From NCBI GenBank assembly GCA_964530995.1, contig CAZHCG010000001.1:14942-78941 (forward strand): 64,000 nucleotides of DNA. Direction: 5' to 3'. The stretch is from an uncultured Myxococcales bacterium (GTDB taxonomy: Bacteria; Myxococcota_A; Polyangia; JAAYKL01). The notes beneath the pieces are model-generated. The model made no database searches. It was not told the DNA's origin and saw nothing but the letters and a program-made list of their open reading frames with translations. Shown here one piece after another: positions 2,502 to 34,693 of this stretch; positions within the stretch are counted from its first letter, which is position 1; every line of letters starts with the position of its first letter. The position numbers were made by a program, and so were the translations under genes.

Positions 2502-2716
2502 GACTGAGCGAGGTTCCCGAGGCGCCCGAGCGCTACAAGTCGATGAAGAGCCGCAACGGCGGCGACGTGATGGCCACCCCGAATCGCGAGCTCGCGTGGC
2601 GCGAGGGGTACAAGGCCGCGGTTAACGGCATCGGCAAGAACCCACACCCCGTCACGCATCCGACGCGGCACCGTGCGTGGAAGGACGGCTACCAGGCGGG
2701 GCTCGACGCGGCATGA
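2498..2716 (+). CDS. small protein with ribosome modulation factor (Rmf)-like motifs
   Basis: ATGA overlaps on both sides; motifs AWREGYKAAVNG and AWKDGYQAG resemble the Rmf RGYQAG / GWREA signature. Confidence 0.45.
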   Translation: MRLSEVPEAPERYKSMKSRNGGDVMATPNRELAWREGYKAAVNGIGKNPHPVTHPTRHRAWKDGYQAGLDAA

Positions 2717-4371
2717 CTCAGCTGGTCCTTGGCCGATATGCGCCAATGGACCACCAGGCTGAAGATGTCGAGAGGCTCTCTTCACACCCGCGAATCAACG
2801 TCTGGAACGGCCTAGGGACCGGGAAGACCGCGACTGTAGCGTGGTGGCTTCAACGGCTGTGGTGGTCCGAGGTGGTTGATGAGGCGGTGCTCGTGCTGCC
2901 GTCCATGACCGCTCGAGACTGGCGCGAAACGTTGGAATTTACGGCGTGGCCAGAGGGCCTGGTCGACTTCTGGGACTGTCGCCCGCCGCGTCACACGCTC
3001 ATAGGGGAGGCTTTCACCGAATCCGCCAGGCCGCCGGGCCATCGGTTCAGGGTCATGTGCACGACGTACGGCGGCGCCAGGGCGCTGATGGACGGCCGCA
3101 CCACCGGCAAAAGGTATCGCGTAGATGAGAGCGGCCAGCTGATGAGCTGCGTCCGAGGTAGGCGCATCGCTGCCGTCTTCGACGAGAGCCAAGGTGCCGC
3201 TCTTCAATCCTCCCAGCAGGGAATCGCCTGTCGAGCGCTCGCGTCGGCCTGCCGGTCGGTGGCGAGCGTGACGGCCACGCCTATTGGCAATCCAATCGCC
3301 ATGAGGCTCTGGGGCATGGCCAAGCTCGTCAGGCCTGACCTTCTGACGCGAGTGGTGCCGCCTCCGCTAGGATCCGTCGTCCCCAAGGTAGGGTCGTTCA
3401 ACGCCTTCAAGGCGCGCTATGGGTTCCTCAACGACCCAAGGCAGGATCAAGCCGCTCGCCAAGGGCGCACGATTCCGTTCAACATCAATCGCGCGTATCC
3501 GGTCAGCGTAGACCAGGTGAAGCTGAAGAACGAGATACTCGCGCCCATGGCACCGTTCACCACCAGGCGCGCGAAAGAGGACTGCCTAGATCTGCCGCCG
3601 AAGGTGTTCATGCGGCGCCAGTTCAGGCTCCCTGCCGCCGCTGAACGAATCATGGATGATCTTGTTGAAGAAGATCGCGCTGTCCTCGAGTCTGGCACCG
3701 TCATCGTGCCGCAGAACATCCTTGTGGAGAACCTTCGAACGTACCAATTGTGCGGGGGATGGCTCGCTGGCGAGCCGGTGCACGACGGAAAGCTGAGGCT
3801 GCTCGAGGAGGTCTTAGGTGAGATACGCGAGAACCTCGGGTCAGATGCGCCGATACTTGTTTGGGCAAGAGGTAGTCGAGAGCTTGTGGGATCGGCTCTG
3901 GTTGCGGCTGGGACTCCACCACGCGAGGCGTTCAGCAAGGTCTCTGCTTGCTATCCCCCTGGGGAATCGGCGCCCGTTCGTGCGCTGTACGTTAGGTCGG
4001 TCAAAGACGCCGAAGGAAAGGGCGTCGGACTCATCCACGGGCCGACCGCCGACTCAGAGCGCGACAGAATACAGGATGAGTGGAAGGCCGGAAGGCTACG
4101 GGTCGTTGTGGCGCACCCGGGTGTCGCGGGGGCGGGGCTGAATTGGCAGCACGTCAAGGCCAGCGTGTATTATTCGTCGCCAGGCGGGTCAATCGCGCGC
4201 AATCAATCGGAGGACAGGGTGCATCGCAAGGGCCTTGAACATACGGCCCTGTACTACGACCTGACGGTAGAGGGCGGGCCAGACGAGGCGGTCGTCATGG
4301 CCCATCGAAGGGAGATCAACGTAGAAGCGGCATTGCTTCAGTGGCTGGCGGACCGTGCTGGCCATCGGTGA
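2713..4371 (+). CDS. SNF2/DEAD-like superfamily 2 helicase
   Basis: Motif I GLGTGKTATVAWW, motif II VFDESQGA, helicase-C region GLIHGPTADSERDRIQDEWKAGRLRVVVAHPGVAGAGLNWQHV. Confidence 0.8.
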   Translation: MTQLVLGRYAPMDHQAEDVERLSSHPRINVWNGLGTGKTATVAWWLQRLWWSEVVDEAVLVLPSMTARDWRETLEFTAWPEGLVDFWDCRPPRHTLIGEAFTESARPPGHRFRVMCTTYGGARALMDGRTTGKRYRVDESGQLMSCVRGRRIAAVFDESQGAALQSSQQGIACRALASACRSVASVTATPIGNPIAMRLWGMAKLVRPDLLTRVVPPPLGSVVPKVGSFNAFKARYGFLNDPRQDQAARQGRTIPFNINRAYPVSVDQVKLKNEILAPMAPFTTRRAKEDCLDLPPKVFMRRQFRLPAAAERIMDDLVEEDRAVLESGTVIVPQNILVENLRTYQLCGGWLAGEPVHDGKLRLLEEVLGEIRENLGSDAPILVWARGSRELVGSALVAAGTPPREAFSKVSACYPPGESAPVRALYVRSVKDAEGKGVGLIHGPTADSERDRIQDEWKAGRLRVVVAHPGVAGAGLNWQHVKASVYYSSPGGSIARNQSEDRVHRKGLEHTALYYDLTVEGGPDEAVVMAHRREINVEAALLQWLADRAGHR

Positions 4372-4420: not shown

Positions 4421-4429
4421 TGGTATAAT
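4421..4429 (+). promoter_or_regulatory. extended -10 promoter element TGGTATAAT
   Basis: One of at least ten near-identical TGnTATA(A/C)T elements, each 30-70 nt upstream of an operon start. Confidence 0.5.
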
Positions 4430-8833: not shown

Positions 8834-8913
8834 CGGTGACGACATGACAGCCAGTGCGCGCGACACGGCGCGACACAACGAGGACATGTGGCGTGGCCCG
8901 CCTCCATAGGTCA

Positions 8914-8922
8914 TGGTATACT
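8914..8922 (+). promoter_or_regulatory. extended -10 promoter element TGGTATACT
   Basis: Motif family member upstream of 8976. Confidence 0.45.
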
Positions 8923-8975
8923 TGAGACGTAAGCAAGGGATGGGTATCGTCTACCAAAGAAAGGAACCAGACAAC

Positions 8976-10064
8976 ATGCAGCTTCACCAGTCCACCGTGC
9001 TGATGATGCTCACCTACCTCGGCGTCGAGGCCGAGGAGGGTGAGGATCTCGACTCCACGCTCGACGAGTCGCTCGCCGAGTACAACCTCGACCGGGACCA
9101 GTTCCTCACGCGGGAGACCTGCTTCTCGCTGGGGTACCACCGCGGCCTGGCCGGGCGCCCCTTCTCCGACGAGCAGGCGCCGCAGGGCGACGACGGCCCC
9201 GACAAGGAGCTCATGGAGCTCATCGAGGACGGCTACGCCTACGGCCTGGAGGCACGGGACCTGCGCCTGTCGCCGCCGCCCAGCCTGGTGCTGACCGCCC
9301 ACGACGCCAACGAGCTCGAGGCCGGGATGCTGGCCAAGTGGGCCGAGGAGCTCGACCTCTCCGAGGGTCAGCGCCTGGCGCACGCCATCAACATCGGCAG
9401 CGGCAAGTCCGCCGTCACCGTCCCCGCCGGCACCCCGGTGGACGTCCTCGGTGAGGCCGAGAAGGACGGCGTCCCGCACACCATCGTGCTGTTCGACGGG
9501 TCGGCGCTCCTGGTCCCCAACCCCGAGGACGCCTCCAACATCGTCTCCGCGGACACGGCCGTTGCCCCGGAGAAGAAGACCCGCAAGGGCAAGAAGAAGA
9601 GCGGCGGCGCCAAGCGCGAGCGCGGTCCGACCCTCAAGCAGGGCATCATCAAGGTCATCGAGGGCGGCGACGGCGGCCCCGGCCCCCTGCAGACCAACGG
9701 GCAGTTCGCCAGCCGCGTCAAGGCCGTGTGCCGCGAGATGGGCATCGGCGACAAGGCCGGCAAGTTCGTCCAGCAGGCGGACCGGCACGTGCCCTACTAC
9801 CTCAACTGCTACCGCCCGACCAAGCAGGGTGAGCCCGGCCGCCTCGGCGTCGAGCAGCCGTTGGCCTGGGTGGTCGCCGCCACCGTGGCCCGCAAGTACT
9901 ACCTGCGCGCCGACGGCTCCCACGAGGAGCGGATGAAGGCCATCCCCGCCGACCTCATGTCCCAGATGGAGGACCGCGAGGCGCGGGTGGAGACCACCGC
10001 CCCGGCCCCGGCCGAGCCCAAGAAGAAGAGCAAGGACGACGCCAAGGACAAGTCCAAGGAGTAG
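8976..10064 (+). CDS. hypothetical protein with a basic linker
   Basis: Ribosome-binding site AAGAAAGGAAC; the upstream part of ORF 8913..10064 is unlikely to be coding. Confidence 0.55.
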   Translation: MQLHQSTVLMMLTYLGVEAEEGEDLDSTLDESLAEYNLDRDQFLTRETCFSLGYHRGLAGRPFSDEQAPQGDDGPDKELMELIEDGYAYGLEARDLRLSPPPSLVLTAHDANELEAGMLAKWAEELDLSEGQRLAHAINIGSGKSAVTVPAGTPVDVLGEAEKDGVPHTIVLFDGSALLVPNPEDASNIVSADTAVAPEKKTRKGKKKSGGAKRERGPTLKQGIIKVIEGGDGGPGPLQTNGQFASRVKAVCREMGIGDKAGKFVQQADRHVPYYLNCYRPTKQGEPGRLGVEQPLAWVVAATVARKYYLRADGSHEERMKAIPADLMSQMEDREARVETTAPAPAEPKKKSKDDAKDKSKE

Positions 10065-10139
10065 TTCATCGGCGCTGACGGCCATACCGGCCATACCGGC
10101 CAGAGCGCCTCGCCGAGGAACGACCCCCTGTCCACCGCT

Positions 10140-10418
10140 TTGAGGGAGTCACTCGGCGGGGCGCTCGCGGCGCATAGAAAGCGAGTCAAGTCCCATTCGA
10201 CGCTCACTGGCGTCATTGACTCGTCCGCCCTCAAGAAGCGCATTCTGAAGCCAAAGACCAGGACGAAGACCTACGGCGGAGAGCGACCTGAGCCCAAACG
10301 CGAGGTGAAGGTGGTGCGCCCGAAGTCAGACCGTGGAAAAAAGCTCAGTGCGTCTGAGAAACGACGTCGACGAAAACGCCGCAAAGCGGCCCAGAAATCA
10401 AAGAAGAGAAACCGATGA
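10140..10418 (+). CDS. small, highly basic K/R-rich protein, possibly nucleic-acid binding
   Basis: TTG start; its stop overlaps the next ATG (ATGA), which suggests translational coupling. Confidence 0.4.
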   Translation: MRESLGGALAAHRKRVKSHSTLTGVIDSSALKKRILKPKTRTKTYGGERPEPKREVKVVRPKSDRGKKLSASEKRRRRKRRKAAQKSKKRNR

Positions 10419-11188
10419 GAGTGCAGAAATGCGCTGAGACGGCGTTTGCTATCATCGACTGCGACTGCGACCCACAGCAGGACATGATTCAACGCCAGAT
10501 AAAGTTTCAAAAGCGCGTCGGAACCTGGGACGACTCCATCAAGGATTACGGCCCAAATCCGAAGTGTGATCCACGTAAGGTGGTGTGGATGCTCGACCTT
10601 GCCCTGCAGGAGGCCAGCGAAGCGTGGGACCTAGTCGAGGGCGGCTGGAAGGGCCACAAGCTCAACCCTGACCCGATGGACGACGGCGAGGTCCTCATGG
10701 AGCTCGTAGACGTGGCACACTACGTCTGGAACGCCTACGCCTTCGCCGGCGGGCAGCCACATCCGGACCTCGTCGCCGCCGCAGTGTGCGCATGCCGCCA
10801 GAACCTGCAGCTTCCCACGCTCAATATGTTCCTGGCGTGGCAGAAGGGCACCATGCTCTGGTCCGGTGGCAACAGCGAAGACATGGAGTTCAAGTACGGC
10901 TATCACGAATGGGCGCACGGTACGGATGCCGAGAAGGCGGTGGCCTCGCGCATCAACTGCCTGCGCGCTCAGATCGCCGGAGTGGCCGAGACTTACCGCT
11001 CTTCAATGGTCGGGTTCAGAGACCGCCTCGACAAGTACCCTGTCGCGCCTGGATTCGTGTTCGACGAGATCGTTCCTCACATGTATGCCGCTGCCGCCGC
11101 GATTCCAGGGTGTGACGAGCAGACCTTTTACTCCGCGTTCGTGCACAAGAACGACATCAACCACGGGAGGCAAGACGATGGGTACTGA
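10415..11188 (+). CDS. MazG-like all-alpha nucleoside triphosphate pyrophosphohydrolase (dUTPase/dCTPase family)
   Basis: EExxE-type helices LALQEASEAWDLVEGG and ELVDVAHYVWNAYAF. Confidence 0.65.
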   Translation: MRVQKCAETAFAIIDCDCDPQQDMIQRQIKFQKRVGTWDDSIKDYGPNPKCDPRKVVWMLDLALQEASEAWDLVEGGWKGHKLNPDPMDDGEVLMELVDVAHYVWNAYAFAGGQPHPDLVAAAVCACRQNLQLPTLNMFLAWQKGTMLWSGGNSEDMEFKYGYHEWAHGTDAEKAVASRINCLRAQIAGVAETYRSSMVGFRDRLDKYPVAPGFVFDEIVPHMYAAAAAIPGCDEQTFYSAFVHKNDINHGRQDDGY

Positions 11189-12410
11189 GGGGTACAGGGC
11201 GCTCGGCAATGAGGAACAGCTCGAGCAGATCGGCGTCAACATGGCGACGGCAGACAAATTCGATGCCGTAGGCGCGTGCATCTTCGCTGGAGGATTCAGC
11301 TTCGGCATGGAGCAGGCCGGATTCGACGTGGCCGGACATTTCGAATTCCCTGGGCTCGACCTAGGAGCCGATGTGTCGCGTCAACGCTGGCCTGTATTCA
11401 TTGGGTCGCTCGAGGAGTGGGTAGCCCCGTTCGGCAATGGCATGGACCAGCCGCACGTCCTGTTCATGAACCCACCGTGTGTCGCATACGCCGGAACGGG
11501 CAAGCACCAGGGTACATCAGACGACCGCATGTGCTACCTGCGATGGTGCGTCGAGTGGGCGATGCGCGTGCAACCGGAGGTGTGGGCGTGGGAACTCGTG
11601 CCAGGCATCTACGGCAAAGACAGGTCGTGGCTCGAGGCCATGACGTTCAGGGCTGGCAGGCTCGGCTACAAGTGCTGGGCGTTTCTGACCAGCTCGGCAC
11701 TGCACGGTGGGTACATGGACAGGCGCCGGTTCCACTTCGTGGCATCCAGAGTCGAGCTGGATTTCGAGGCCTCGTACGCCGCGGACTGGGACAGCCACAA
11801 GGGCGTCCTCACGCTCGGCGACGCCCTGGCGTCCGTCAGCCACGCGAGGGAGATGCATGGGCCGCTACCGAACGACAAGAACACCTACCACGGCGCCTTC
11901 GCGGACATCATCCCGTACTGCGCCCCGGGCATGCACCTCGGCAACCTGCCCGATGAGATCATGCACGAGCACTATCGCCCACGTGGCCGCCCATGGTCTG
12001 GCTCCGGGCGACCCGGGTTTTCGCACACTCGTGGCCGACTCGATCGTCCCAGCCCTAACGTGCTGGGAGGGCATACCATATTCCACCCCGTCGAAGACCG
12101 CTACCTGACCCCACGCGAGAAGGCTACGATCATGGGGTTCCCCACCGATTACGCCTTCAGCCGCGGCAGCAAGGCGTACCAGGAGATCGGACGCGGGCTG
12201 TGCACTCACAACGCGAGGTTCCTAGGCGTTGCCATCATGGACGGACTGAAGGCCGGACAGCCGGCAGATGTGGATCGCAAGCTGCACGCCGTGGACTGGC
12301 GCAGCAGGGCGAAGAAGCTCAATATGTCCATGACCCGCGAGGAACTGTTCGAGTGGTACCGAGGACGCCACAGAGAGGACCCGCCGGAGTCATACGGCAT
12401 GCGCCGATGA
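11178..12410 (+). CDS. DNA cytosine-C5 methyltransferase-fold protein (motif IV NPPC, catalytic Cys present)
   Basis: Motif I IFAGGFSFGMEQAGF; motif IV FMNPPCVAY; ENV-like WELVPGI; motif VIII-like GGYMDRRRFHFVAS. Confidence 0.8.
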   Translation: MGTEGYRALGNEEQLEQIGVNMATADKFDAVGACIFAGGFSFGMEQAGFDVAGHFEFPGLDLGADVSRQRWPVFIGSLEEWVAPFGNGMDQPHVLFMNPPCVAYAGTGKHQGTSDDRMCYLRWCVEWAMRVQPEVWAWELVPGIYGKDRSWLEAMTFRAGRLGYKCWAFLTSSALHGGYMDRRRFHFVASRVELDFEASYAADWDSHKGVLTLGDALASVSHAREMHGPLPNDKNTYHGAFADIIPYCAPGMHLGNLPDEIMHEHYRPRGRPWSGSGRPGFSHTRGRLDRPSPNVLGGHTIFHPVEDRYLTPREKATIMGFPTDYAFSRGSKAYQEIGRGLCTHNARFLGVAIMDGLKAGQPADVDRKLHAVDWRSRAKKLNMSMTREELFEWYRGRHREDPPESYGMRR

Positions 12411-12416
12411 AACAGT

Positions 12417-12435
12417 CCCCCCACCGCATGGGGGG
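12417..12435 (+). terminator. hairpin CCCCCC-ACCGCAT-GGGGGG between the methyltransferase paralogs
   Basis: Perfect 6-bp G/C stem; immediately followed by a -10 element. Confidence 0.35.
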
Positions 12436-12437
12436 CA

Positions 12438-12446
12438 TGGTATAAT
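12438..12446 (+). promoter_or_regulatory. extended -10 promoter element TGGTATAAT
   Basis: Motif family member; GGGAGG ribosome-binding site and ATG 12479 downstream. Confidence 0.5.
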
Positions 12447-12478
12447 GTATTCATGGACCAAGAGATGGGAGGCCCAAA

Positions 12479-14329
12479 ATGCCGAGAAACTACGGGGAGC
12501 CAAGACTTGCGCTCGATGAGATCAAGCGCAGGATTGGCGAGAGTGAGAACCTGACCGCGCTGGGAGCCTGCGTCTTCGCGGGCGGCTTCAGCTTCGGGAT
12601 GGAGGAGGCCGGCTTCGACGTCGTCGGCCACCTGGAACTGCCGGACCTGGACGTCGGAGCTGGGACCGCCAGCCAGCGATGGCCAGTGGCTGTGGCGCCG
12701 CTCGACGACGCGTACGAGCACAAGAACCGGCACGGCAACCACACGACGTGGATGAACGCCGTGGACGAGCTGCTCGAGGAGGAGCTCGTGCCCGACGTCC
12801 TCCACATGAACCCGCCCTACTCGGCGTTCGCGCAGACCGGACTGCAGCGCGGGCTGTCCGATCCGGTCATGTGCTACCTGGAGTACTGCGTGCACCGCCT
12901 GGCGCTTCGGCTGAAGCCCAAGGTGTTCGTCTGGGAGCTCGTGCCCGGCATCTGGGACCGCGAGCCGCAGTTCATCAACTCGATGGCAGCTGCCGCCGCG
13001 GAGCATGGGTACAGGACCTACTCGTTCCTGACCACCGCCGCGCTTCACGGCGGGTTCCAGAACCGCAACCGCTTCCACTTCATCGCCAGCAAGTACGCGC
13101 TGGACTTCGAGGGAGTGTACGAGAGGGAGCCCGCCGACCGCAAGGCCTGCCGGACGCTGGGCGACGTGCTCCAGATCGTGGACGACGCTCAGGCGGAGTT
13201 GGGACGGCTCCCGAACCACGAGGCGGACTACCAGTCCACCGGCGCACTGGACGCCATCCTTCCGTTCGTGCCGCCTGGCGGGTACCTCGGAGACGTGCCT
13301 GACCCCGTGCTCTACGAGCACTACAGGCCGAACGGTCAGCCGTGGAAGGGCACCGGTCGCCCCGGCGCGACGCGCGTGCGTGGGCGCATGGACCGCACCT
13401 GTCCGGTCATCATCGGCGGCGCCAGCATCGTCCACCCGGAGAAGGACCGCTGGCTGACCGTCAGGGAGTGCGCCGCGGCGCAGGGATTCCCGATGGACTA
13501 CGAGTTCCCCAACGGTGGCAACGGCTACGCCGAGGTCGGCAAGGGCCTCTGCACGCACAACGCCGCCTTCGTGGGACGGGTCATCTGGGATGCCCTGGCG
13601 AACAAGACGGACGCCGAGCCCAACGTCGTCGCTGAGCTGATCGACTGGCGCAAGCGCACCAGCGTGCCGAAGATGACGCCGAGCATCGAAGAGCGCCGGG
13701 CGTGGTTCAAGGAGAAGCACCCCGACCTTCCCATCGAGTACGCCGAACGCAAGAAGAGCGCCAAGAAGGGCGGCAAGAAGCGCTCTCGCAAGCAGGCCAC
13801 GTGCATCGCAGTCCCAGCGTACGACGGCGGCGAGAAGAGCGCGCGTGTCATGCGCATGCTGCGGCTCTGCGGCATCACGGCGATCGTCCCGCCGGACAAC
13901 GACCCCGCCGGCCGAGTGGCCGCGTTCCAGGGCAGCTCGCTGGCGCTCCTCATCGCGGAGGACCAGGCGGCCGCCTTCCAGGCGTTCATGGACGTCGGCA
14001 CGGCGCTGGGAGCCAGCAAGCCGGTCCTGACGATGTTCCCCGACGGAGTGCCCACTCCGCCCGGAGTGACCCCCATCCCGGACGAGGCTGACGCCGCGTT
14101 CGTGGTCAAGTCCATCGTGGAGAGGTCCGGAATGAACGTCGCTGACGTGGTCCAAGCGGTCATCAACCGCCTGGCCGGAGACGCCGCGTCCCTCACCACC
14201 ATCCTTAACATCGCCCTGGAGATGATCCCGGACGACGACTACGGAGAGGACGAGGTCAGCGAGGAAGACCTCGAGGACGAGGACGAGGAGAACCAGGACG
14301 CCTACGAGGTCACCGACGACGAGGACTAG
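12479..14329 (+). CDS. paralogous C5-methyltransferase-fold protein with motif IV NPPY (Cys replaced by Tyr) and a long acidic C-terminal extension
   Basis: VFAGGFSFGMEEAGF; HMNPPYSAF; WELVPGI; canonical QxRxR as FQNRNRFHFIAS; collinear with the 11178..12410 product through the target-recognition region (YEHYRPNGQPWKGTGRPG…GLCTHNAAF). Confidence 0.8.
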   Translation: MPRNYGEPRLALDEIKRRIGESENLTALGACVFAGGFSFGMEEAGFDVVGHLELPDLDVGAGTASQRWPVAVAPLDDAYEHKNRHGNHTTWMNAVDELLEEELVPDVLHMNPPYSAFAQTGLQRGLSDPVMCYLEYCVHRLALRLKPKVFVWELVPGIWDREPQFINSMAAAAAEHGYRTYSFLTTAALHGGFQNRNRFHFIASKYALDFEGVYEREPADRKACRTLGDVLQIVDDAQAELGRLPNHEADYQSTGALDAILPFVPPGGYLGDVPDPVLYEHYRPNGQPWKGTGRPGATRVRGRMDRTCPVIIGGASIVHPEKDRWLTVRECAAAQGFPMDYEFPNGGNGYAEVGKGLCTHNAAFVGRVIWDALANKTDAEPNVVAELIDWRKRTSVPKMTPSIEERRAWFKEKHPDLPIEYAERKKSAKKGGKKRSRKQATCIAVPAYDGGEKSARVMRMLRLCGITAIVPPDNDPAGRVAAFQGSSLALLIAEDQAAAFQAFMDVGTALGASKPVLTMFPDGVPTPPGVTPIPDEADAAFVVKSIVERSGMNVADVVQAVINRLAGDAASLTTILNIALEMIPDDDYGEDEVSEEDLEDEDEENQDAYEVTDDED

Positions 14330-14332
14330 AAC

Positions 14333-15322
14333 ATGGCCCTGAAGAACGAGGCGTCATACAGCGACTCACGCGCCAACATGCTCGACGCGTGTGCGAGGCA
14401 GTACTTCTACGGCGTATATCGCATGTGGAACGGGTGGTGGTACGGCAAGCGCCCTCCCGCCAGTCGAGACGCAGAGGAGGCCTACGTAGCGAAGCACGCC
14501 TCGACCGGCTCTCAGTGGGCCGGCAAGCTGGTGCACGGCTCGGCAGAACACGCGCTCAAGAGCGCGAGGCGACAGCGGGGATTCCTGCAGTCGTCTGGCG
14601 GCATGCGCGGCCTGGCCACGGCCTTGAGCCGAAGGGCGGCCGGCGAGATCGACGTCGGGCTCCGGCAGGCCAGGACGCAACGAACCGGCAACCCAAAGCA
14701 GCGGATACAACTCGTCGAGGTAACCCATGGCCTCCCCTTCGACGAGTCCCAATTCCGCAACAGGGTCAGGTCGCGCATCGCCGCCCTCTGCGCCGATGGT
14801 GACAAATGGGACGGAGACTTCGCGGGCACCAACCTGTTCGAGCGCGCCATATCAGCCAGCGATCGCATCGTGGCCGTGGAGGAGCTCGTCAGGACTGAGA
14901 TTCGCGGGGTCACGATGTTCCTCAAAGTCGACCTCCTCATGAGGTCGCCGAAGGAGAGCCGAGACTGTTCGGTCATCGACTGGAAGACCGGCAAACCTCG
15001 AGACTCGGACGTACAACAGCTCGAGCTTTACACCGTGTGGGCTCACTCCGTGGGATGGAGGCGCGTGTCCGCGTTCGACGCCTACCTCGGCGACGAGTCC
15101 ACCAACGTGGTGCGACACAACATCGACCCAGACGCCGCCGCCAAATCGGTGGGAGAGCGCGTCGCAAGGTTCAGGGACTCGTTGGCAGGCCGGCTGAATG
15201 ACGGCGACCTCGACAAGAACGTGCCAATAGAGAGCAAGTTCGAACCCACTACGAATGCCAGTCAGTGCACCCTATGCTCGTTCGCGAGACTGTGCGAGCG
15301 AGACGGCACGAAGCCACGCTAA
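14333..15322 (+). CDS. PD-(D/E)xK nuclease, Cas4/RecB-like, with a C-terminal Cys cluster
   Basis: Motifs …KVDLLMRS…VIDWKTGKP; C-terminal CTLCSFARLC plus an N-terminal Cys, consistent with Fe-S coordination. Confidence 0.7.
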   Translation: MALKNEASYSDSRANMLDACARQYFYGVYRMWNGWWYGKRPPASRDAEEAYVAKHASTGSQWAGKLVHGSAEHALKSARRQRGFLQSSGGMRGLATALSRRAAGEIDVGLRQARTQRTGNPKQRIQLVEVTHGLPFDESQFRNRVRSRIAALCADGDKWDGDFAGTNLFERAISASDRIVAVEELVRTEIRGVTMFLKVDLLMRSPKESRDCSVIDWKTGKPRDSDVQQLELYTVWAHSVGWRRVSAFDAYLGDESTNVVRHNIDPDAAAKSVGERVARFRDSLAGRLNDGDLDKNVPIESKFEPTTNASQCTLCSFARLCERDGTKPR

Positions 15323-15342
15323 AGGACAAAGTCGAACATTCG

Positions 15343-15362
15343 TGATATACGGTACTATATTA
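15343..15362 (+). promoter_or_regulatory. promoter-like element TGATATACGGTACTATATT
   Basis: Variant of the motif family, upstream of 15387. Confidence 0.4.
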
Positions 15363-15386
15363 CGGTGTAACTCTGGAGCTGGTCAA

Positions 15387-16721
15387 ATGTTCGATACGAA
15401 GCCGACTCAGCAGGGCTTTCTCGCTACGACCATGAAGAGGAACCAGTACTCACGCGACGCGATCATGGGAGTGCTGCAGAGCCTCGGAATGCCGGTGGCC
15501 CTGGACGAGTCGCACATCGTCTTCACCGACTGTGACGCCGCCATCCGATGGATGGTGGTGGCGGGCGACGACCAGATCGCGTCGCTCTTCTCGGCCTTCG
15601 AGGACCCGGACAAGTACGGCAAGGCTCGCGAGGCCTTCCGGTCGCTCGCGCCGCCCATCGCGATCAAGCACGTCATGTCCCCCGGCGTGTCCATGCGGGG
15701 AGGCGCCGCCGTCCTGGATGGGTGTGCGATGCGCGTGCGCATCAACCCGCGCGTCAATGCCAACGAGGGCCCCGAGGCCTTCGTGGTGCCGGTCCGCAAG
15801 GAGATGATGATGAGCGGGGCCGAGTGGGTGCAGATGGTCGCCCTTGTCCCCAAGGCCCAGTTGCCCGAGTGGATGGCGATCGTGCACGCCGCGCACGCCG
15901 CCGACCGCTCTTTCGACGTTCGACGCCAGGTCATGCGCGTTTACAACGGTCCCGATGTTCCGATCTCTCCCATGAGCTTGGACGGGCTGATTCTCGATGA
16001 CCGAGTGCTTCGCGAGTTTCCGGACGACATCACCGGGTTCCTGAGCCGGCGGGACTGGTACGTCAAGCGCAGCCTGCCGTGGTCTCGCAAGTACCTGCTG
16101 GATGGCCCGCCGGGCACCGGCAAGACGTCCCTTGCGAGATGGGCCGCCACCAGCCTCGGTATGCCTGCCATCTCGTTCGACTTCACGGACAAGTTGGCTG
16201 ACGGCCGAGACTTCAGCATGTGCCTGTCGTACGCCGGTCGTCGGGCGCCGTGCTTGCTGGTCCTGGACGACATCGACAAGGTGTTCGGCGGCGACAACAA
16301 GACCGGCATCACGGCTCACACCCTGCTGACGGCGTTCTCCGGCATGAGCGGCATGGACGGAGTGATCGTCATCGCCACGTCCAACTCGACCAACCCGTTC
16401 AAGCAGACGTTCAACAACGACCCGTCCACTCCCATGATGCGGCGCTTCGACCAGATCGTCAAGTTTCCGCTTCCGACTGCGGAGCATCGGCTCAGGTACC
16501 TGGAGCGGCTGCTCAACGAGGACGGAGTCGGCATGGACGCGCTCACCACCATGGCGCAGAGCTCCGATGGATGGTCATTCGATGACCTGAGGGCGGCGGT
16601 CACATCTGCCGCGAACCGCATGATCGCGAGGAAGGGCGACACCATCAACGAAGACGACCTCAACCACGGGATCCGAGCGGTCACCACGCGTCGCGACGAG
16701 TCAACTCCAATCGACGGATAG
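15387..16721 (+). CDS. AAA+ ATPase (classical clade)
   Basis: Walker A LLDGPPGTGKTSLA; Walker B CLLVLDDIDK; sensor-1 ATSNS; Arg finger MRRFD. Confidence 0.8.
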   Translation: MFDTKPTQQGFLATTMKRNQYSRDAIMGVLQSLGMPVALDESHIVFTDCDAAIRWMVVAGDDQIASLFSAFEDPDKYGKAREAFRSLAPPIAIKHVMSPGVSMRGGAAVLDGCAMRVRINPRVNANEGPEAFVVPVRKEMMMSGAEWVQMVALVPKAQLPEWMAIVHAAHAADRSFDVRRQVMRVYNGPDVPISPMSLDGLILDDRVLREFPDDITGFLSRRDWYVKRSLPWSRKYLLDGPPGTGKTSLARWAATSLGMPAISFDFTDKLADGRDFSMCLSYAGRRAPCLLVLDDIDKVFGGDNKTGITAHTLLTAFSGMSGMDGVIVIATSNSTNPFKQTFNNDPSTPMMRRFDQIVKFPLPTAEHRLRYLERLLNEDGVGMDALTTMAQSSDGWSFDDLRAAVTSAANRMIARKGDTINEDDLNHGIRAVTTRRDESTPIDG

Positions 16722-16724: not shown

Positions 16725-17105
16725 ATGGACGTCTGGAACGACCAGATCGTCATACAGGGGCTCACCGCGGCATACGGCACCGGAGTCCCTCTCGACACCA
16801 TGCCCATCTACGGCGACGTGCGCCGCATGTCCGTCACTCGCCTAGGCTCCAGCAGCGGCGACATCACTGTGGAGGTATCAGCCAATAAGGACTTCACCGA
16901 CATCCTGATGGAGGTCGAATTTCAGGGCATGAACGGCGCGGGGGCGTCCAACGTGTGGGGGTGCGGATACAAGCCGACCTTCAACGCGCCTAACGGCCTG
17001 TACGTGCGGGCCAAGGACACAGCAGACGCTGGTGACGACATCTCGGTGAAGATCTCCGGCGAGGCTGGCGAGGGTGCGGGTCAGTACAGGGGGATCGGCA
17101 AATGA
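16725..17105 (+). CDS. hypothetical protein
   Basis: Ribosome-binding site GGATAGGG; ATG. Confidence 0.5.
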   Translation: MDVWNDQIVIQGLTAAYGTGVPLDTMPIYGDVRRMSVTRLGSSSGDITVEVSANKDFTDILMEVEFQGMNGAGASNVWGCGYKPTFNAPNGLYVRAKDTADAGDDISVKISGEAGEGAGQYRGIGK

Positions 17106-17440
17106 GCACCGGCGACGTCGTAGTCCTCAAGCCGCCCCCGGGGTCCTGTCCCGGCGGAGGAGGCGCGCCGACTCCGATGGACCTCAGCGTGTTCCTGGAG
17201 ATCATGCTTCAGTGGACGAAGGGCACCCTGTCCAAGGAGTTCACGTACACCGGCCTAGACCTGACGCGCATCAGCTATTTCGACGTGGACGGCGGCACGG
17301 AGCTCTACCGCGTGGAGTTCAGCTACGACGGCAGCGGCTTCCTCGACACTGAGGTCGCAACCAGGCTGGCCGACTCCGCGGCTCAGACGAAGACCTACAC
17401 TCACGCCAGCGGTGTGGTGACGAAGGTGGTAGTCACGTGA
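17102..17440 (+). CDS. hypothetical protein
   Basis: ATGA overlap with the previous gene. Confidence 0.5.
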   Translation: MSTGDVVVLKPPPGSCPGGGGAPTPMDLSVFLEIMLQWTKGTLSKEFTYTGLDLTRISYFDVDGGTELYRVEFSYDGSGFLDTEVATRLADSAAQTKTYTHASGVVTKVVVT

Positions 17441-17946
17441 GGACGACGCCAGCCACCGACGGGAAGAAGCACGCGGGCTCCAACCCGCTGCCACACGACC
17501 ACCACAACCGACCGGAGTCGTTCTCGATCAGCAGCACCGGCACACAGAGCCTGCCGCCCGGTACCACGTACGACCTCGACATCGACCTCGGGCGCACGGG
17601 GTACACCTACGGCAGGGTGTACCTGGAGGGCCCACGCACGATGTCCGGATCAGGGGTGCTGTGGCAGGAGTGCGCCGAGGTGGTCGTCACTACGGACTCC
17701 GCGGACGCCAGGTCCCACAGCGTTAGGGACTCGAACTTCAAGAAGGTGTACGCCGGCCACTACTCGAAGCCGCAGGGCGACGCGTGGCTCAGCCACAAGA
17801 TCTTCGACTCCGCCACCGGACTGACACAAAGGTACATCGCCCTGCTGGACGCATGGATCACCGGCAGCACACTGCGGCTCAGGTTCCACAACTACTTTGG
17901 CGGCTCCGCGTTCCTGTGGGTCGAGGGGCAGGCGGTGATGCGATGA
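17437..17946 (+). CDS. member A of a tandem three-gene paralog family (HDHH motif)
   Basis: GTGA overlap start; N-terminal HDHHNRPESF; C-terminal LDAWITGSTLRLRFHNY. Confidence 0.55.
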   Translation: MRTTPATDGKKHAGSNPLPHDHHNRPESFSISSTGTQSLPPGTTYDLDIDLGRTGYTYGRVYLEGPRTMSGSGVLWQECAEVVVTTDSADARSHSVRDSNFKKVYAGHYSKPQGDAWLSHKIFDSATGLTQRYIALLDAWITGSTLRLRFHNYFGGSAFLWVEGQAVMR

Positions 17947-18431
17947 GGACGTCGGTCAAAAGGAACACGACGGACCACGCCGACATCCTGGTCCAGACGG
18001 AGCACGACCACCACCCACGCGGTCAGGAGTTTCGCATCATCATCAACTCGACGTCCATCGCGCCGGGCGCCTACGAGCACCGCACCGCGCTGGGAAGGTC
18101 GGGACATCAGACGTCCCGAGGCATTCTGCGCGGCTACAAGCAAATGTCGGTTCAAGGGCATAATGGCCTCTTCTTCGTCGGAGGGCCGAGCTCGGGACAG
18201 TGCTCCGGGATCGGCATGGAACCGTACGGAGGCGGCGGATACTACTCGGCGTACATGGGCGGGTACTCGCGCCTGCACGGCGACTCGTTCCTGAGCAGAT
18301 CGTGGATGTTCGGCCCGAGCATCTACCTCCGTGACGCGTACATCGATGACGATGAATTCGTCCTCGAGTTCTACAACCAGGCCGCCTCAAACAGGAATCT
18401 CAGCTGCTACGGATCGGTGGCAGTCAAGTGA
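17943..18431 (+). CDS. member B of the tandem paralog family
   Basis: ATGA overlap; HDHHPRGQEF…; C-terminal VLEFYNQAASNRNL. Confidence 0.55.
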   Translation: MRTSVKRNTTDHADILVQTEHDHHPRGQEFRIIINSTSIAPGAYEHRTALGRSGHQTSRGILRGYKQMSVQGHNGLFFVGGPSSGQCSGIGMEPYGGGGYYSAYMGGYSRLHGDSFLSRSWMFGPSIYLRDAYIDDDEFVLEFYNQAASNRNLSCYGSVAVK

Positions 18432-18949
18432 GGACCCAGAGCCACAGGATGCACCCGGGCGGCCACGCCGGTCTGGTCAACGTCAACGCGAACGACCACC
18501 ACGAGCAGCCCACATTCGTGGAGTTCAGCGACACCACGACTGTCATCGCCCCAATGCCATTCGGCCCAGGAACCATTGACATCATCCTGCCGTGGGCGGC
18601 TGACGTGGTGCTGTTCGACCTGCGCTCCGTCAGGACCGTGGGCGAAGGGTCGCTCAAGGCTGGGGTCACCGGCATCACCGGCAGGTCCCAGTACTTCGAC
18701 GCCACTTGCGCGTCCATCGGCGGCAGAGGGACTACAGCGGCTACTGCCTACGGAGCGATATATAGCAAGGCCGCCTCGGCGCTGAACCTATCCCACAAAG
18801 TGTTCTCCTCAAGCGGCGCGGACGTCAGCCTGACGGACGCCTGGATCACGACCAGCGGGCCAAACACCGTCCTCAGGCTCGAGTTCACGAACTACAGCGC
18901 CGGCAACCGGACCCTAAACGTGTGGGGGACCGTCGAGGTGTTGGGATGA
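18428..18949 (+). CDS. member C of the tandem paralog family
   Basis: NDHHEQPTF…; C-terminal LTDAWITTSGPNTVLRLEFTNYSAGNRTL. Confidence 0.55.
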   Translation: MRTQSHRMHPGGHAGLVNVNANDHHEQPTFVEFSDTTTVIAPMPFGPGTIDIILPWAADVVLFDLRSVRTVGEGSLKAGVTGITGRSQYFDATCASIGGRGTTAATAYGAIYSKAASALNLSHKVFSSSGADVSLTDAWITTSGPNTVLRLEFTNYSAGNRTLNVWGTVEVLG

Positions 18950-20202
18950 CGCTACGAGTGCTGGCCATCTGCCAGGAGGACCCCGAGCACATCCTCGGCG
19001 GGATGGGCCGGCACGTCGGCGAGCTGTACGCGACGATGGCGCGCAGGTCTGATGTGGAAGTGGACCTGCTGACATGCGGCGTGGGCGACGAGCCCACGAC
19101 CTGGCGCGGATTCACCAAGTGGCCCGGCGACAAGCTCGTGGCGTGGAAGCCGCGCAGTCCTGACATGTCGAGCCTACTGATGAGCGACATCCAGATGCTG
19201 CGCCAGCTCACGCAGATGCTGGCCGACGGGCGCCGCTGGGACGTCGTGCACGTCCACGAGTGGAACGCCCTCCAGGTCGCCAGGGCCGCCCGGGACGCGC
19301 TTCGAGTGCCTCTGGTCGGCACGATGCACCTCTGCATCACGTACCTCATGGAGGACGGCGGTGGAATCAGCGGCGAGATGAAGGATCAGGAGATGTACCT
19401 GATGCAGATGGAGGGCCACCTCGCCGTCGACACCGACGAGTTCATCATCTGCTCGGACGCCTACCGTCGGCTCACAAGCCGGCTGTTCATGACGGACCGC
19501 GACACCAACGTGATCTACAACGGCATCGATACGCAGAGGTGGAGCCCGGAGCTGGGGGACGCCAAGAGCGCTCTCAGACGGCACGGACTGCCGTGGGATC
19601 GACCCATCTGCCTGTTCGTCGGGCGCATCGCCGAGATGAAGGGCATCCGCACGATCATGGACGCCGTCGAGCGCGAGGACAACGGCTGGTTCTACGCCCT
19701 CGCCGGCGAGATCAACGCCAACACCAAGGCGGCCCGTGACTCGTGGGACGTCACCCAGCGGCTCGAGCGCATGAACGAGGAGCTCCCGGACCGATTCAAG
19801 TGGGTCGGATTCCAGCAGGGCCAAGCGCTCAAGGACCTGTACGCCGCGGCGACGGTCGGCCTGATGCCCAGCCACCACGAGCCGTTCGGCCTGGTCGCCC
19901 TCGAGCACATGGCGATGGGCGTGCCGCTCATCAGCACGGAAGTCGACGGCCTTGGCGAGGTGGTCATGGACGAGGCCGGCGTCGAGTACGCGATGATAGT
20001 GCCGCCGCGCAGCGTTGAAGACATCCTGGAGGCCCTGGAGATCCTCAGCGACCCGAAGCCGCGCGAGGAGCTCAGGCGGCTGGGCCTTCAGCGCGCCAGT
20101 CAGTTCGACTGGCACGAAATCGCGGCTCAGACGGTTGACGTTTACCGACGAGCCGTACTGAATCACAGCCGCCCGCAGGAGGCCGCATGTTCATCATACT
20201 GA
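18946..20202 (+). CDS. GT4-family (GT-B fold) glycosyltransferase
   Basis: N-terminal GGMGRHV; C-terminal signature HHEPFGLVALEHMAMGVPLIST. Confidence 0.85.
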   Translation: MTLRVLAICQEDPEHILGGMGRHVGELYATMARRSDVEVDLLTCGVGDEPTTWRGFTKWPGDKLVAWKPRSPDMSSLLMSDIQMLRQLTQMLADGRRWDVVHVHEWNALQVARAARDALRVPLVGTMHLCITYLMEDGGGISGEMKDQEMYLMQMEGHLAVDTDEFIICSDAYRRLTSRLFMTDRDTNVIYNGIDTQRWSPELGDAKSALRRHGLPWDRPICLFVGRIAEMKGIRTIMDAVEREDNGWFYALAGEINANTKAARDSWDVTQRLERMNEELPDRFKWVGFQQGQALKDLYAAATVGLMPSHHEPFGLVALEHMAMGVPLISTEVDGLGEVVMDEAGVEYAMIVPPRSVEDILEALEILSDPKPREELRRLGLQRASQFDWHEIAAQTVDVYRRAVLNHSRPQEAACSSY

Positions 20203-20681
20203 CCGAGCCCGTGCAGGTGCCGGACCTGAACCGCATCTCCATCGCCAACATCGAGATCGAGCACAACCCTCAGCGCGGGCGCGCGTGGGCCGAGATCTGG
20301 TGCGTGTGGGGCTACCTCGAGGAGCCGGGCAACCCCATGTCATTCGTCGAGTGCAAGCACCCCGTCACCGGTGAGGACGCGACCCTCTTCAAGATCGAGG
20401 ACGGCCACCACCCCATCGCCCACGACATGGCGCTGGGCAAGTGCCCCACCTGCGGGGCGTGGCATCAGCGGATCTCGAGCGTCTGCGGGGTGGACGGGTG
20501 CGATGGGGACGTGGCGCCCTACGACGGGTTCACCCGGGTCATGGCCGAGATGACCGCGGATGGGGAAGACGTCGGCACGGCGGTTCAGCGGATCGCGTAC
20601 ACCTTCCTCCTGACCGAGGTGATCCCCGATCATAACACGTGGGAGCTGCGCCCCCTGGTGGCGGGCACGCCGGAGGTGTAG
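20187..20681 (+). CDS. hypothetical Cys/His-containing protein
   Basis: Overlaps the previous stop; CKHP…CPTCGAWH…CGVDGC. Confidence 0.5.
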   Translation: MFIILTEPVQVPDLNRISIANIEIEHNPQRGRAWAEIWCVWGYLEEPGNPMSFVECKHPVTGEDATLFKIEDGHHPIAHDMALGKCPTCGAWHQRISSVCGVDGCDGDVAPYDGFTRVMAEMTADGEDVGTAVQRIAYTFLLTEVIPDHNTWELRPLVAGTPEV

Positions 20682-20685
20682 GGCG

Positions 20686-22041
20686 ATGAACGGCAGCAGC
20701 GTCAGAATCATAGACGGAGACACCGAGCGCATCGAGACGCAGGCGCTCGACGATGCAGAGGACCCGCTCACCGGGGTCACGGACCTGCTCATCTCCATCC
20801 GTCGGGTGAGCGACGACTTCTACTACGACTTCAACGACAACACATTCAAGTCCACTGGGTGGACCACCAGGCGTCAGGCTATGACGGAGCTCGACGCCAC
20901 CAACGACCCGGGCCTGTACTACTACGACTTCGACACCTCGGCCATCACCAACGAGGCGGCAGACGACACCTACATGGTGCGCGTCGAGCAGTCCCCCGGA
21001 ACCACCGTGGAGAACCTGCCGCAGAGCGGGGAGATCAAGGTCGACCAGTGGCCGAAGGATATTATCGACGACGTTGCCACCGTAGACGGTGTCGTCGACG
21101 ACATCCTGGTAGACACCAACGAGATGCAGAGCAAGCTGCCCACGAACAACATCATGGGGAGCAGCGACAAGGCGGACCATGACGGCGAGATCGGCGACAT
21201 CCTCACTGACACCGCGGCGATGCAGCCGCTGGTCAGCGCCAACCTGGACGACTCGATCAGCAACGTCAGAGCTGACATCGCGGCTCTCAACGACATCGAT
21301 CAGGCGGGCGTCCAGGCGGCCCTGACGGCCCAGGGGTACACCTCGGTCAGGGCCGGGCTCCTGGACAACCTCGACCAGGCCATCAGCTCCTTGAACGACC
21401 TGTCCATCGCAGACGTGCAGACCGCGCTGACGAACCAGGGGTACACGGCTCTTCGGGCGGCGGCCCTGGACAACCTAGACGCCGCAATCTCGACGGTCCT
21501 CGGGGCCATCGGCGCTCTCAACGACCTGAGCCAGGCCGACGTGCAGTCCGCCATGACCTCGCAGGGCTACACGACCATCAGGGCGGCCCTGCTGGACAAC
21601 CTGGACGCGGCCATCACGGCAATCCCGGCGGCGGTTGACGTCGTCCTGTCGGCGGCTCACGGCAGCGGGAGCTGGGAGGACGCCGGGGCGATGGCCGCCG
21701 ACGTCGTGATCGAGTACATCAACGGCAACTTCAAGGTCGGCGTGACGATGATCGAGCATGGGGAGGTTGTCACGGACTTCGACTCCGTGGCCGCCGAGAT
21801 CCATGAGGTCGATGGCGCCGCGACCCTAGTGGTGGACCTCGGCACGCAGAACAGCGACAACGCCGACGGCACCTTCATCTTCACCGACACCCCGACCCTG
21901 GACTACGGGGAGGTGTACGCACTCGTCATTGTGGCAACCCGTGGCCTCGACACCTGGAACCTCCACTTCGGGTTCCCGGCAGAGCGCCTGGCCGACCAGT
22001 TCCGTGTGACGAGGAACCTGGTGGTAGGCACGGGGGTGTAG
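20686..22041 (+). CDS. repeat-containing protein, probably structural, with three 35-aa tandem repeats
   Basis: Repeats LND(I/L)xxAxVQxA(L/M)TxQGYTxxRAxLLDNLDxAI(S/T), each occurring three times. Confidence 0.55.
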   Translation: MNGSSVRIIDGDTERIETQALDDAEDPLTGVTDLLISIRRVSDDFYYDFNDNTFKSTGWTTRRQAMTELDATNDPGLYYYDFDTSAITNEAADDTYMVRVEQSPGTTVENLPQSGEIKVDQWPKDIIDDVATVDGVVDDILVDTNEMQSKLPTNNIMGSSDKADHDGEIGDILTDTAAMQPLVSANLDDSISNVRADIAALNDIDQAGVQAALTAQGYTSVRAGLLDNLDQAISSLNDLSIADVQTALTNQGYTALRAAALDNLDAAISTVLGAIGALNDLSQADVQSAMTSQGYTTIRAALLDNLDAAITAIPAAVDVVLSAAHGSGSWEDAGAMAADVVIEYINGNFKVGVTMIEHGEVVTDFDSVAAEIHEVDGAATLVVDLGTQNSDNADGTFIFTDTPTLDYGEVYALVIVATRGLDTWNLHFGFPAERLADQFRVTRNLVVGTGV

Positions 22042-22042
22042 C

Positions 22043-22561
22043 GTGTACGTCGTCGGTTTCAGCAAGAAGATGACGTTCCTCGCCAGAGCGATCATGTGGT
22101 TCACGAAGAGCCACACGAGCCACACCTACGTCCGCCAGGGCGACACGGAGACCGGGTATGTCTTCGAGTCCGACGAGCGTGGGGCCAACAACCAGTGGGC
22201 CCCCGTGTTCTACCGCGAGGGCAGCGGCAACATCATCGTCGAGGAGTACCTCATCGAACTGCCGGACGAGCTACTCAACGACGGATGGGACGTTACACAG
22301 CGACAGCACCTGAATCAAAAGTACGGATACCTACAGCTCGTCGGAGACGCCATTTCCATCCTGGTCGAGTGGGCATTCAAGAAGAAGGTCAAGAATCCGT
22401 TCGGCAACGCCTATACCGTCGTGTGCAGTGAACTGGTGCTGGCATTCCTCGTAAACTCAGACATCCCTGGCTTCGCGGACATGGACCCAGAGCTCGTTAG
22501 CCCCGAAGATCTGTTGGAAGTGATTCACACCATGCCGGCCACGTTCCAACGGTTGACTTGA
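22043..22561 (+). CDS. hypothetical protein
   Basis: GTG start; lower-GC codon usage. Confidence 0.45.
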   Translation: MYVVGFSKKMTFLARAIMWFTKSHTSHTYVRQGDTETGYVFESDERGANNQWAPVFYREGSGNIIVEEYLIELPDELLNDGWDVTQRQHLNQKYGYLQLVGDAISILVEWAFKKKVKNPFGNAYTVVCSELVLAFLVNSDIPGFADMDPELVSPEDLLEVIHTMPATFQRLT

Positions 22562-22637
22562 GGCTCGCAGCTCGACGAACTGATAGGGATGGACAGGGTG
22601 CGCGCTACAGGGCAGTATAGGGTGGACGGAGGCGTTG

Positions 22638-26262: not shown

Positions 26263-26540
26263 AGTTCGATCTCAGCGTGATCGAGGAGATGCACGAGGCG
26301 CATCAGGCGACGTTCAAGCGCCTGTGCGACAAGGCGGAGCTGGAGGTCAAGAAGACCTCGGTGACCTTCTCGGAGGAGCAGATCAAGAAGGCGTCGGAGG
26401 ACCCGGGGTTCGCCAAGGGGTTCCCGATGTTCGCGGCGGCCTACGGGAAGGCCTCCAAGAGCTCGAAGAAGCCCGACAAGAAGTCCTCCAGCGACAAGTC
26501 CGTCAAGAAGGACAAGACCGAGGACAAGCCGCAGGACTAG
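26259..26540 (+). CDS. hypothetical K-rich small protein
   Basis: GAAAGG ribosome-binding site, then ATG; C-terminal KKPDKKSSSDKSVKKDK. Confidence 0.4.
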   Translation: MKFDLSVIEEMHEAHQATFKRLCDKAELEVKKTSVTFSEEQIKKASEDPGFAKGFPMFAAAYGKASKSSKKPDKKSSSDKSVKKDKTEDKPQD

Positions 26541-26626
26541 TCGGCGAGTTCGCCACAGGCGACGACCTCTGCAGGGCCGCACTGCGGTTCTGCCTAGCAC
26601 AGGAGTCTGAGGCCGCCCCGAGAGGC

Positions 26627-34678: not shown

Positions 34679-34693
34679 GACTGGTGATTGACT

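Follow-up and report, generated by a model that had tools for sequence, protein, structure and literature searches.

We analyzed a stretch of 64,000 nucleotides (the window; positions 14,942 to 78,941 of contig CAZHCG010000001.1, assembly GCA_964530995.1, filed under an uncultured Myxococcales bacterium) that belongs to a phage genome of 100.7 kb and carries two neighboring genes for proteins with the fold of DNA cytosine-C5 methyltransferases. Both genes lie on the plus strand. The first, MT-short (11178..12410), encodes a 410-aa protein of a short subfamily with an intact catalytic nucleophile, and its ATG overlaps the stop codon of the upstream MazG-like gene. The second, MT-long (12479..14329), follows after a spacer of 68 bp and encodes a 616-aa protein of a long subfamily, in which Tyr occupies the place of the nucleophilic Cys.

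The two proteins were 44% identical over 409 aa (BLASTP, E 1e-124), including related recognition regions, which bears out the paralogy proposed in an initial annotation made from the letters alone. Both matched PF00145 (E 6.6e-14 for MT-short and 1.9e-17 for MT-long), and in the Pfam scan at E<=1 neither matched a second methyltransferase family, amino-methyltransferase profiles included. PHROG 116 ("DNA methyltransferase") was matched by both proteins, and every PHROGs family that matched MT-long matched MT-short as well. The AlphaFold2 (AF2) model of MT-long had a mean pLDDT (per-residue confidence score) of 87.4, and its best Foldseek matches were 3g7u (E 2.6e-13), M.HaeIII (1dct; E 3.7e-13), M.HhaI, MET1, ZMET2 and DNMT1, with E values of ~1e-13 to 1e-10. 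Pfam, AF2 and Foldseek were thus in accord on a class I methyltransferase fold that comprises a large domain and a small, recognition domain. The Tyr of MT-long lies on the catalytic loop, so that neither of the two outcomes that would have refuted the initial annotation was observed.

The motifs named in the initial annotation were all found in these genes. FAGGFSFG (motif I) and ELVPG occurred in both proteins, and motif VIII read MDRRR in MT-short and QNRNR in MT-long. Motif IV was NPPC in MT-short (11469..11480, plus strand; aa 98–101, with the Cys101 codon TGT at 11478–11480) and NPPY in MT-long (12809..12820, plus strand; aa 111–114, with the Tyr114 codon TAC at 12818–12820). When a profile of 30 family members was aligned to M.HaeIII, the column of Tyr114 fell on Cys71 of the PPC motif, ELV fell on ENV, and Q(D/N)RxR fell on QDRKR. 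The Pro-Cys nucleophile is therefore present in MT-short and absent from MT-long, as the annotation had held, and both copies have the cofactor loop of motif I, a Glu of the ENV type and the arginines of motif VIII. The Glu of motif VI (E153) and both arginines of motif VIII (R196 and R198) were invariant throughout our family alignment of 30 sequences (alignment A1). C5 transfer requires attack of a thiolate on C6 of the flipped cytosine. In studies of M.EcoRII and M.HhaI as cited in PMC4437897, replacement of the active-site Cys abolished methyl transfer. For these two reasons, MT-long is predicted to have lost covalent C5 catalysis completely or almost completely. Because the cofactor motif, the ENV-type Glu, the QxRxR arginines, the recognition region and the C-terminal domain are intact, the protein should still fold and has probably retained cofactor and DNA binding.

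The Tyr was confined to this one protein. A word-indexed search of 5.8 billion proteins yielded 45 homologs, all with Cys, and an exhaustive hidden Markov model (HMM) search of 1.84 billion cluster representatives delimited a compact family of ~17 representatives above 338 bits, followed by a gap down to 206 bits, where ordinary C5 enzymes began. The nucleophile column held Cys in 181 of 182 aligned proteins and Tyr only in MT-long. Within alignment A1, 29 of the 30 sequences had Cys, among them all 14 other long-subfamily members, and the reading NPPC was found in 171 of the 185 relatives of the full set, so that it is the usual motif of a large clade known from phages and metagenomes. The Tyr codon TAC is one transition away from the Cys codon TGC. 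The initial annotation had drawn attention to NPPY as the catalytic tetrapeptide of N6-adenine and N4-cytosine amino-methyltransferases; as NPP is the invariant context of the clade and Tyr occurs once in 182 proteins, and with no amino-methyltransferase profile matched, the significance given to this likeness was not supported. Judged from these alignments, NPPY is a lineage-specific single-nucleotide change inside the normal NPPC context of the family, and its likeness to the amino-methyltransferase motif is coincidental. A literature search for natural Cys-to-Tyr changes or inactive C5-methyltransferase paralogs in phages returned nothing relevant.

Four contigs, which were assembled from three sequencing runs, encoded the identical 616-aa protein, and one of these contigs represented a distinct genotype with 5 single-nucleotide polymorphisms elsewhere in 13.8 kb. 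Thus, the Tyr allele is real rather than a read error, and it is fixed in three metagenomes. At 90% identity, MT-long formed a cluster with a single member, and no close Cys-bearing sister is known.

Apart from this residue, MT-long had the appearance of an ordinary family member. C114Y was the sole column of alignment A1 at which MT-long alone left a residue common to the 29 other sequences, so that 57 of 58 such residues were kept; other members showed 0 to 3 unique departures of this kind, and MT-short showed none. The mean identity of MT-long to the long subfamily was 0.51, within the range of 0.45–0.56 seen for the others, its open reading frame was intact, and the G+C content at its third codon positions (GC3) was 0.91. 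Accelerated evolution or decay was considered and rejected on account of the retained invariant residues and the ordinary divergence. The nearest relative was ~55% identical, which corresponds to roughly 45% divergence. Since no further loss had occurred among the 57 remaining invariant sites, we infer that any unconstrained period of MT-long amounted to less than ~5% replacement per site and was thus short relative to this divergence. On this comparison, either the change to Tyr would be recent, or MT-long would still be under selection.

By sequence comparison, the family is a small, phage-only and uncharacterised group of C5-methyltransferase-fold proteins of uncultured phages. Members of the short subfamily have ~410–450 aa, the motif IV context NPPCVAYAGT, and GRGL or GKGL at motif X. 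Those of the long subfamily have ~550–616 aa, the context NPPC[SA]A[YF]A[KQ][QN], mostly GKGL at motif X, and a basic linker with a flavodoxin-like C-terminal domain. Fourteen diagnostic columns parted the subfamilies, eight of them in the recognition region (residues 257–325); at these columns MT-long carried the long-type residue six times, the short-type residue twice, and a residue of its own six times. Gene conversion between the tandem copies was tested and rejected, as the identity of MT-long to MT-short was not above that to other short members in any 40-residue window. Judged from the occurrence of both subfamilies across many uncultured phages, the duplication is old. No family relative turned up in 185,579 scanned genomes of bacteria and archaea, and hence no prophage or host clue; megablast of positions 10000–15500 against 50,697 phage records gave no match, and tblastn with MT-long gave three weak matches only (25–36% identity). 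The primase/helicase of the window was at most 30% identical to proteins of Arthrobacter, Microbacterium and Bacillus phages, and a cultured relative was not found.

Contigs of related phages showed where the two copies reside elsewhere. On L004 and L006, the gene order was Pam3-gp34-like, primase/helicase, unknown, MazG-like, MT-short, PD-(D/E)XK nuclease, AAA, unknown, S-adenosylmethionine (SAM)-fold protein, ThyA homolog and polymerase. This neighborhood contained no long copy, and the PD-(D/E)XK gene followed MT-short directly. The short contig L007 spanned just the genes from MT-short through the SAM-fold protein, with their order unchanged. MT-short of the window is syntenic with these MT-short genes of L004, L006 and L007, which precede the PD-(D/E)XK nuclease gene and, on L004 and L006, follow the MazG-like gene. 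The long copy on the L004 contig (locus L005) lay ~40 kb from the short copy, and at L009, L010 and L012 it was the first gene past a divergent intergenic gap, in neighborhoods unrelated to the window. The 91.9-kb contig of L006 gave the short copy only, with search patterns that match both subfamilies. Because relatives carry the long copy elsewhere and have the nuclease gene directly after MT-short, the tandem arrangement is, as judged by synteny, derived, with MT-long placed between MT-short and the nuclease gene.

The spacer between the two genes contains three elements. A G+C-rich hairpin of 8 pairs (12417..12435, listed on the minus strand) lies just past the MT-short stop codon, and its plus strand lacks a T-run. 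An extended –10 promoter-like sequence, TGGTATAAT (12438..12446, plus strand), lies 33 nt upstream of the MT-long start and is a putative promoter by its likeness. It occurred twice in the 64 kb (63% G+C) against 0.10 expected occurrences, the other copy being at 4421–4429 (plus strand), before a gene that starts at 4488; in relatives, the sequence ahead of the long copy lacks it. A Shine-Dalgarno-like GGGAGG (12467..12472, plus strand) ends 6 nt before the ATG of MT-long.

MT-long extends 193 aa past the end of MT-short, in agreement with the roughly 200-aa, acidic-tailed extension described in the initial annotation. This extension has three parts, namely a basic linker, a domain whose fold was predicted with confidence and an acidic tail, all encoded on the plus strand. 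The linker, RKKSAKKGGKKRSRKQ (13748..13795), was delimited in alignment A1 and had a model pLDDT below 50 at residues 430–439; relatives in that alignment have GRP-rich, AT-hook-like linkers at this site. The domain that follows (13796..14233) is a flavodoxin-like alpha/beta domain with three helices and occurs in the long subfamily only. The tail (14234..14326) has 20 Asp/Glu in 31 residues and is predicted to be disordered. Elsewhere in the long subfamily, an acidic C-terminal end was found only in P0042 and P0045, where it was much shorter.

The window also encodes enzymes that bear on the cytosine of the phage itself. A homolog of ThyA (thymidylate synthase) lies at 26240–27559 (plus strand); its homology starts near residue 106, and the first ~100 codons are probably not coding. 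Its best solved relative was MilA, a cytidine monophosphate (CMP) 5-hydroxymethylase (E 1e-28), with true thymidylate synthases at ~1e-13. The motifs DIPCT and YMRSNDAYLGVPYD correspond to L143D, a retained D169, and N177D in E. coli ThyA numbering. This combination is that of deoxycytidine monophosphate (dCMP) and CMP hydroxymethylases, and D169N marks 5-hydroxy-dCMP synthases (PMC13326640). The ThyA homolog lacked the D169N mark, and its signature was also found in the relatives L004 and L006; its sequence thus predicts a dCMP hydroxymethylase. The gene of a MazG/dUTPase_2-like NTP pyrophosphatase (10415–11188, plus strand) immediately precedes MT-short, its stop codon overlapping the MT-short start, a dTMP-kinase homolog is encoded at 31420–32190 (plus strand), and a GT4 glycosyltransferase that also matches "GT4-conflict" is encoded at 18922–20202 (plus strand). 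Taken together, the four genes are suggestive of 5-hydroxymethylcytosine, possibly in glycosylated form, in the virion DNA. The hunch of the initial annotation that the phage might replace cytosine therefore gained support from the ThyA-homolog signature, the MazG-like enzyme and the dTMP-kinase homolog. The clade nonetheless keeps two DNA C5-modifying enzymes.

Other genes surround the pair. The PD-(D/E)XK nuclease gene (14333–15322, plus strand), the conserved neighbor downstream of MT-short in relatives, encodes a Cas4/RecB-like protein with a C-terminal Cys cluster, CTLCSFARLC. The glycosyltransferase gene is part of a block of about eight genes (16725–22561, plus strand) that is absent from L004, L006 and L007, where the homolog of 22635–24410 comes immediately after the AAA ATPase gene; by this comparison, the block looks like a lineage-specific insertion. 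The gene at 22635–24410 (plus strand) encodes a 591-aa protein without a family match, and that at 24470–25387 (plus strand) encodes a class I SAM-fold protein (Methyltransf_23) with a weak likeness to the HEN1 2'-O-methyltransferase and UbiG, and unlike CmoA. The latter was the only other SAM-fold protein noted in the window. Both products were 47–62% identical to their counterparts in relatives, where they are also encoded beside the ThyA homolog. Upstream of the pair, the gene at 8913–10064 (plus strand; GC3 0.95) encodes a protein of 383 aa (362 aa in the gene call on L001) that has Lys-rich stretches and matched no family; it was 50–57% identical in relatives, where its gene lies between the primase/helicase and MazG-like genes.

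Farther from the pair, a gene at 2713–4371 (plus strand; 552 aa; on contig L014) had a weak Helicase_C match and a third-position G+C content below that of its neighbors. The gene at 34688–37300 (plus strand) encodes an 870-aa Topo VI-like fusion enzyme, in which a GHKL ATPase domain (HATPase_c) is joined to a Toprim domain of the Topo VI-A/Spo11 type, and is followed by a gene for an XPD/DinG-type helicase (Helicase_C_2, DEAD_2; 37284–39020, plus strand). A ribonucleotide reductase large subunit (55215–57314), a 5'-3' exonuclease and an NAD-type DNA ligase are encoded inside the window and also on L015, a contig of the same phage that reaches past the window end. Gene strand turns to minus near 57.5 kb, and the minus-strand region (~57500–64000) includes a tape-measure-like protein (60903–63377). 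Past the window end, L015 encodes a T4 gp19-like tail tube along with further structural proteins, which makes a contractile tail probable for this phage. A search of the window for tRNA genes gave none.

With moderate confidence, we favor the reading that MT-long is a lineage-specific variant, dead for covalent C5 catalysis and otherwise intact, and that the loss was most likely tolerated. In the proposed course of events, the Cys codon of the nucleophile would have become the Tyr codon TAC in one phage lineage, by a single transition if it was TGC. MT-long would thereby have lost covalent C5 catalysis and kept its fold and, probably, the binding of cofactor and DNA. Catalytic modification in this phage would then be left to MT-short. 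Two circumstances would most likely account for this tolerance: MT-short is still present, and replacement of cytosine at the nucleotide level appears to take place in this phage. Several points weigh against this reading. An unconstrained gene on a long terminal branch would be expected to decay further, yet a single invariant residue has been lost. The position beside MT-short, the private promoter-like TGGTATAAT and the uniquely long acidic tail coincide with the Tyr and could signal a changed role. According to the title of reference 17 in PMC4437897, a Cys-to-Ser mutant of Dcm was partially active. By analogy, MT-long may have some residual activity with an oxygen nucleophile.

A possible, though rather doubtful, explanation is that the Tyr variant was kept for a noncatalytic role, in which MT-long binds and flips its target cytosine without covalent turnover and acts as a roadblock or decoy on unmodified (host) DNA or as a nuclease shield. 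The retention of all other invariant residues at an ordinary evolutionary rate, the fixation of the Tyr allele in three samples, and the gene's own promoter-like element and unique acidic tail would fit such a role. The tight noncovalent complexes of M.EcoRII C186A with DNA are obstacles to replication forks and transcription and are lethal to E. coli (PMC4437897). MT-long would not bind the 5-substituted cytosines of the phage, whose probable 5-hydroxymethylcytosine would thus spare its own DNA. However, the variant is a singleton that was adopted by none of 181 relatives and is thus without evolutionary replication. Moreover, tight binding is known for a small substitution (Ala), and the bulky Tyr may hinder closure of the catalytic loop. 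In older work, tight DNA binding was reportedly also seen with Gly in place of the catalytic Cys. The stronger version, that MT-long is a selected weapon or shield, appears unlikely to us. By analogy with the Cys mutants, it would be a noncovalent, tight-binding base-flipper on unmodified cytosine sites that stalls host replication or transcription or masks these sites from nucleases; phage DNA with 5-hydroxymethylcytosine would be invisible to it, and the promoter and acidic tail would tune its timing and DNA affinity. A novel role that consists in amino-methylation is even less likely than this.

The proposal of the initial annotation that MT-long(Y114) serves as a DNMT3L-like partner, an inactive subunit that stimulates or retargets MT-short, is improbable. 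The tandem position in this phage, the related recognition regions and the retained cofactor motif of MT-long speak for it. These signs are outweighed by the relatives: the 14 other long-subfamily members of alignment A1 have Cys and resemble enzymes that act on their own, the subfamilies are unlinked, and the L006 contig yielded a short copy alone to patterns that fit both subfamilies. DNMT3L is defined by a clade-wide, conserved loss of catalytic residues, and no such loss was seen here, with Cys in those 14 members and in 181 of the 182 proteins of the census. In addition, the cofactor-binding and other catalytic motifs of MT-long are intact, unlike those of DNMT3L.

That NPPY makes MT-long a neofunctionalised N4-cytosine or N6-adenine methyltransferase, which had also been proposed, is very unlikely. 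The amino-methyltransferase motif IV, (D/N/S)PP(Y/F/W), and the PC motif of C5 enzymes occupy the same loop after strand 4, and the tetrapeptide is literally present in this topologically equivalent loop of MT-long. Nevertheless, profile similarity to amino-methyltransferase families was absent (Pfam, E<=1), and NPP also precedes the Cys in 171 of 185 relatives of the C5 type. No change is seen in the residues specific to C5 enzymes, the ENV-type Glu and the QxRxR Arg, which orient cytosine C5 toward the cofactor, and one substitution in one lineage would be unlikely to reorient the base. Finally, a sequencing or assembly error in a phage that really has Cys, conceivable only in that the Tyr codon is one base from a Cys codon, is scarcely credible given the independent assembly of the four contigs, the distinguishable genotype among them, and the attribution of the identical protein to an NCBI source as well.

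A further residue common to the family may bear on the group that is transferred. Motif X reads IGRGL in MT-short (12186..12200, plus strand), where it aligned to "vGNAV" of ZMET2/MET1, and VGKGL in MT-long (13535..13549, plus strand), so that Arg and Lys, respectively, replace the Asn of the canonical Gly-Asn, which is found in neither copy. Of 52 family sequences, 49 had K or R at this column, and the wider NPPC/ESV clade has R, K or Q there. In CmoX, a phage DNA cytosine C5-carboxymethyltransferase (PDB 8yf3), R350 contacts the carboxylate of carboxy-SAM at the position of HhaI N304, and an engineered M.MpeI N374K gains carboxymethyltransferase activity (PMC12783734). Both copies have a basic residue at the HhaI N304 position, with MT-short matching the Arg of CmoX and MT-long the Lys of the M.MpeI mutant. 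The C5-methyltransferase fold and the phage origin are also shared with CmoX, which the family profile matched with an E value of 8.8e-11 and which ranked 22 in the Foldseek search with the MT-long model. By analogy, the family may transfer a carboxymethyl rather than a methyl group. This lead is weakened because the family is no nearer to CmoX than to M.HaeIII, because CmoX has SPPC where MT-short has NPPC and MT-long NPPY, and because neither CmoA nor a CmoY-type ligase was found among the scanned window proteins, ~36 kb of the 100.7-kb genome being outside the window. Of this remainder, ~2 kb upstream of the window and ~7 kb of tail genes downstream were covered. The generality of R, K or Q at motif X in the surrounding NPPC clade tempers the comparison further. 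The host could supply the carboxy-SAM cofactor. This lead leaves the verdict on the Tyr unchanged.

Compared with the characterized PF00145 enzymes (M.HaeIII, M.HhaI and the CP-933R prophage enzyme 3g7u), the family has the same fold and the same motif order of I, IV, VI, VIII, IX and X, and MT-short shares their PC nucleophile, ENV-type Glu and motif VIII arginines. The family diverges from them to the extent that it falls below the NCBIfam dcm cut-off. Its motif IV is NPPC, with no Gln following PC, ELV stands in place of ENV, and motif X has G(K/R)G where GN is usual. It has a recognition region of its own that could not be aligned with solved structures; in addition, members of the long subfamily carry a flavodoxin-like domain, and MT-long lacks the Cys. 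The co-occurrence of the family with a predicted dCMP hydroxymethylase, together with the basic motif X residue that is linked to carboxy-SAM, is the reason why it may install something other than a methyl group.

With the amino-methyltransferases, MT-long shares the letters NPPY and otherwise only a Rossmann-like fold; the tetrapeptide is not conserved in its family, and its remaining catalytic motifs are of the C5 type. The case is a caution that such a motif look-alike can arise through a single base change. DNMT3L and plant DRM3 are catalytically inactive C5-methyltransferase paralogs that assist active ones, and they resemble MT-long and MT-short in that an inactive paralog exists alongside an active one. 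They differ in their conservation across clades and in the loss of several motifs for catalysis or the cofactor, whereas MT-long has changed at one residue in one lineage and its relatives have unlinked partners. As such, the finding concerns one phage lineage with an active-site-dead copy of a methyltransferase-type protein and is of limited weight.

Close parallels to MT-long are the M.EcoRII C186A and M.HhaI C81 mutants, which likewise differ from an intact enzyme by a substitution of this residue alone. As far as covered in PMC4437897 and its references 16–18, such Cys mutants lose methyl transfer, and some of them bind DNA very tightly and are toxic. These mutants are engineered, mostly with small residues, whereas the change in MT-long is natural, introduces Tyr, and is encoded by a phage. 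As Cys mutants of C5 methyltransferases can act as lethal roadblocks on DNA, a phage that replaces its cytosine would be the one setting in which such a protein could be used safely.

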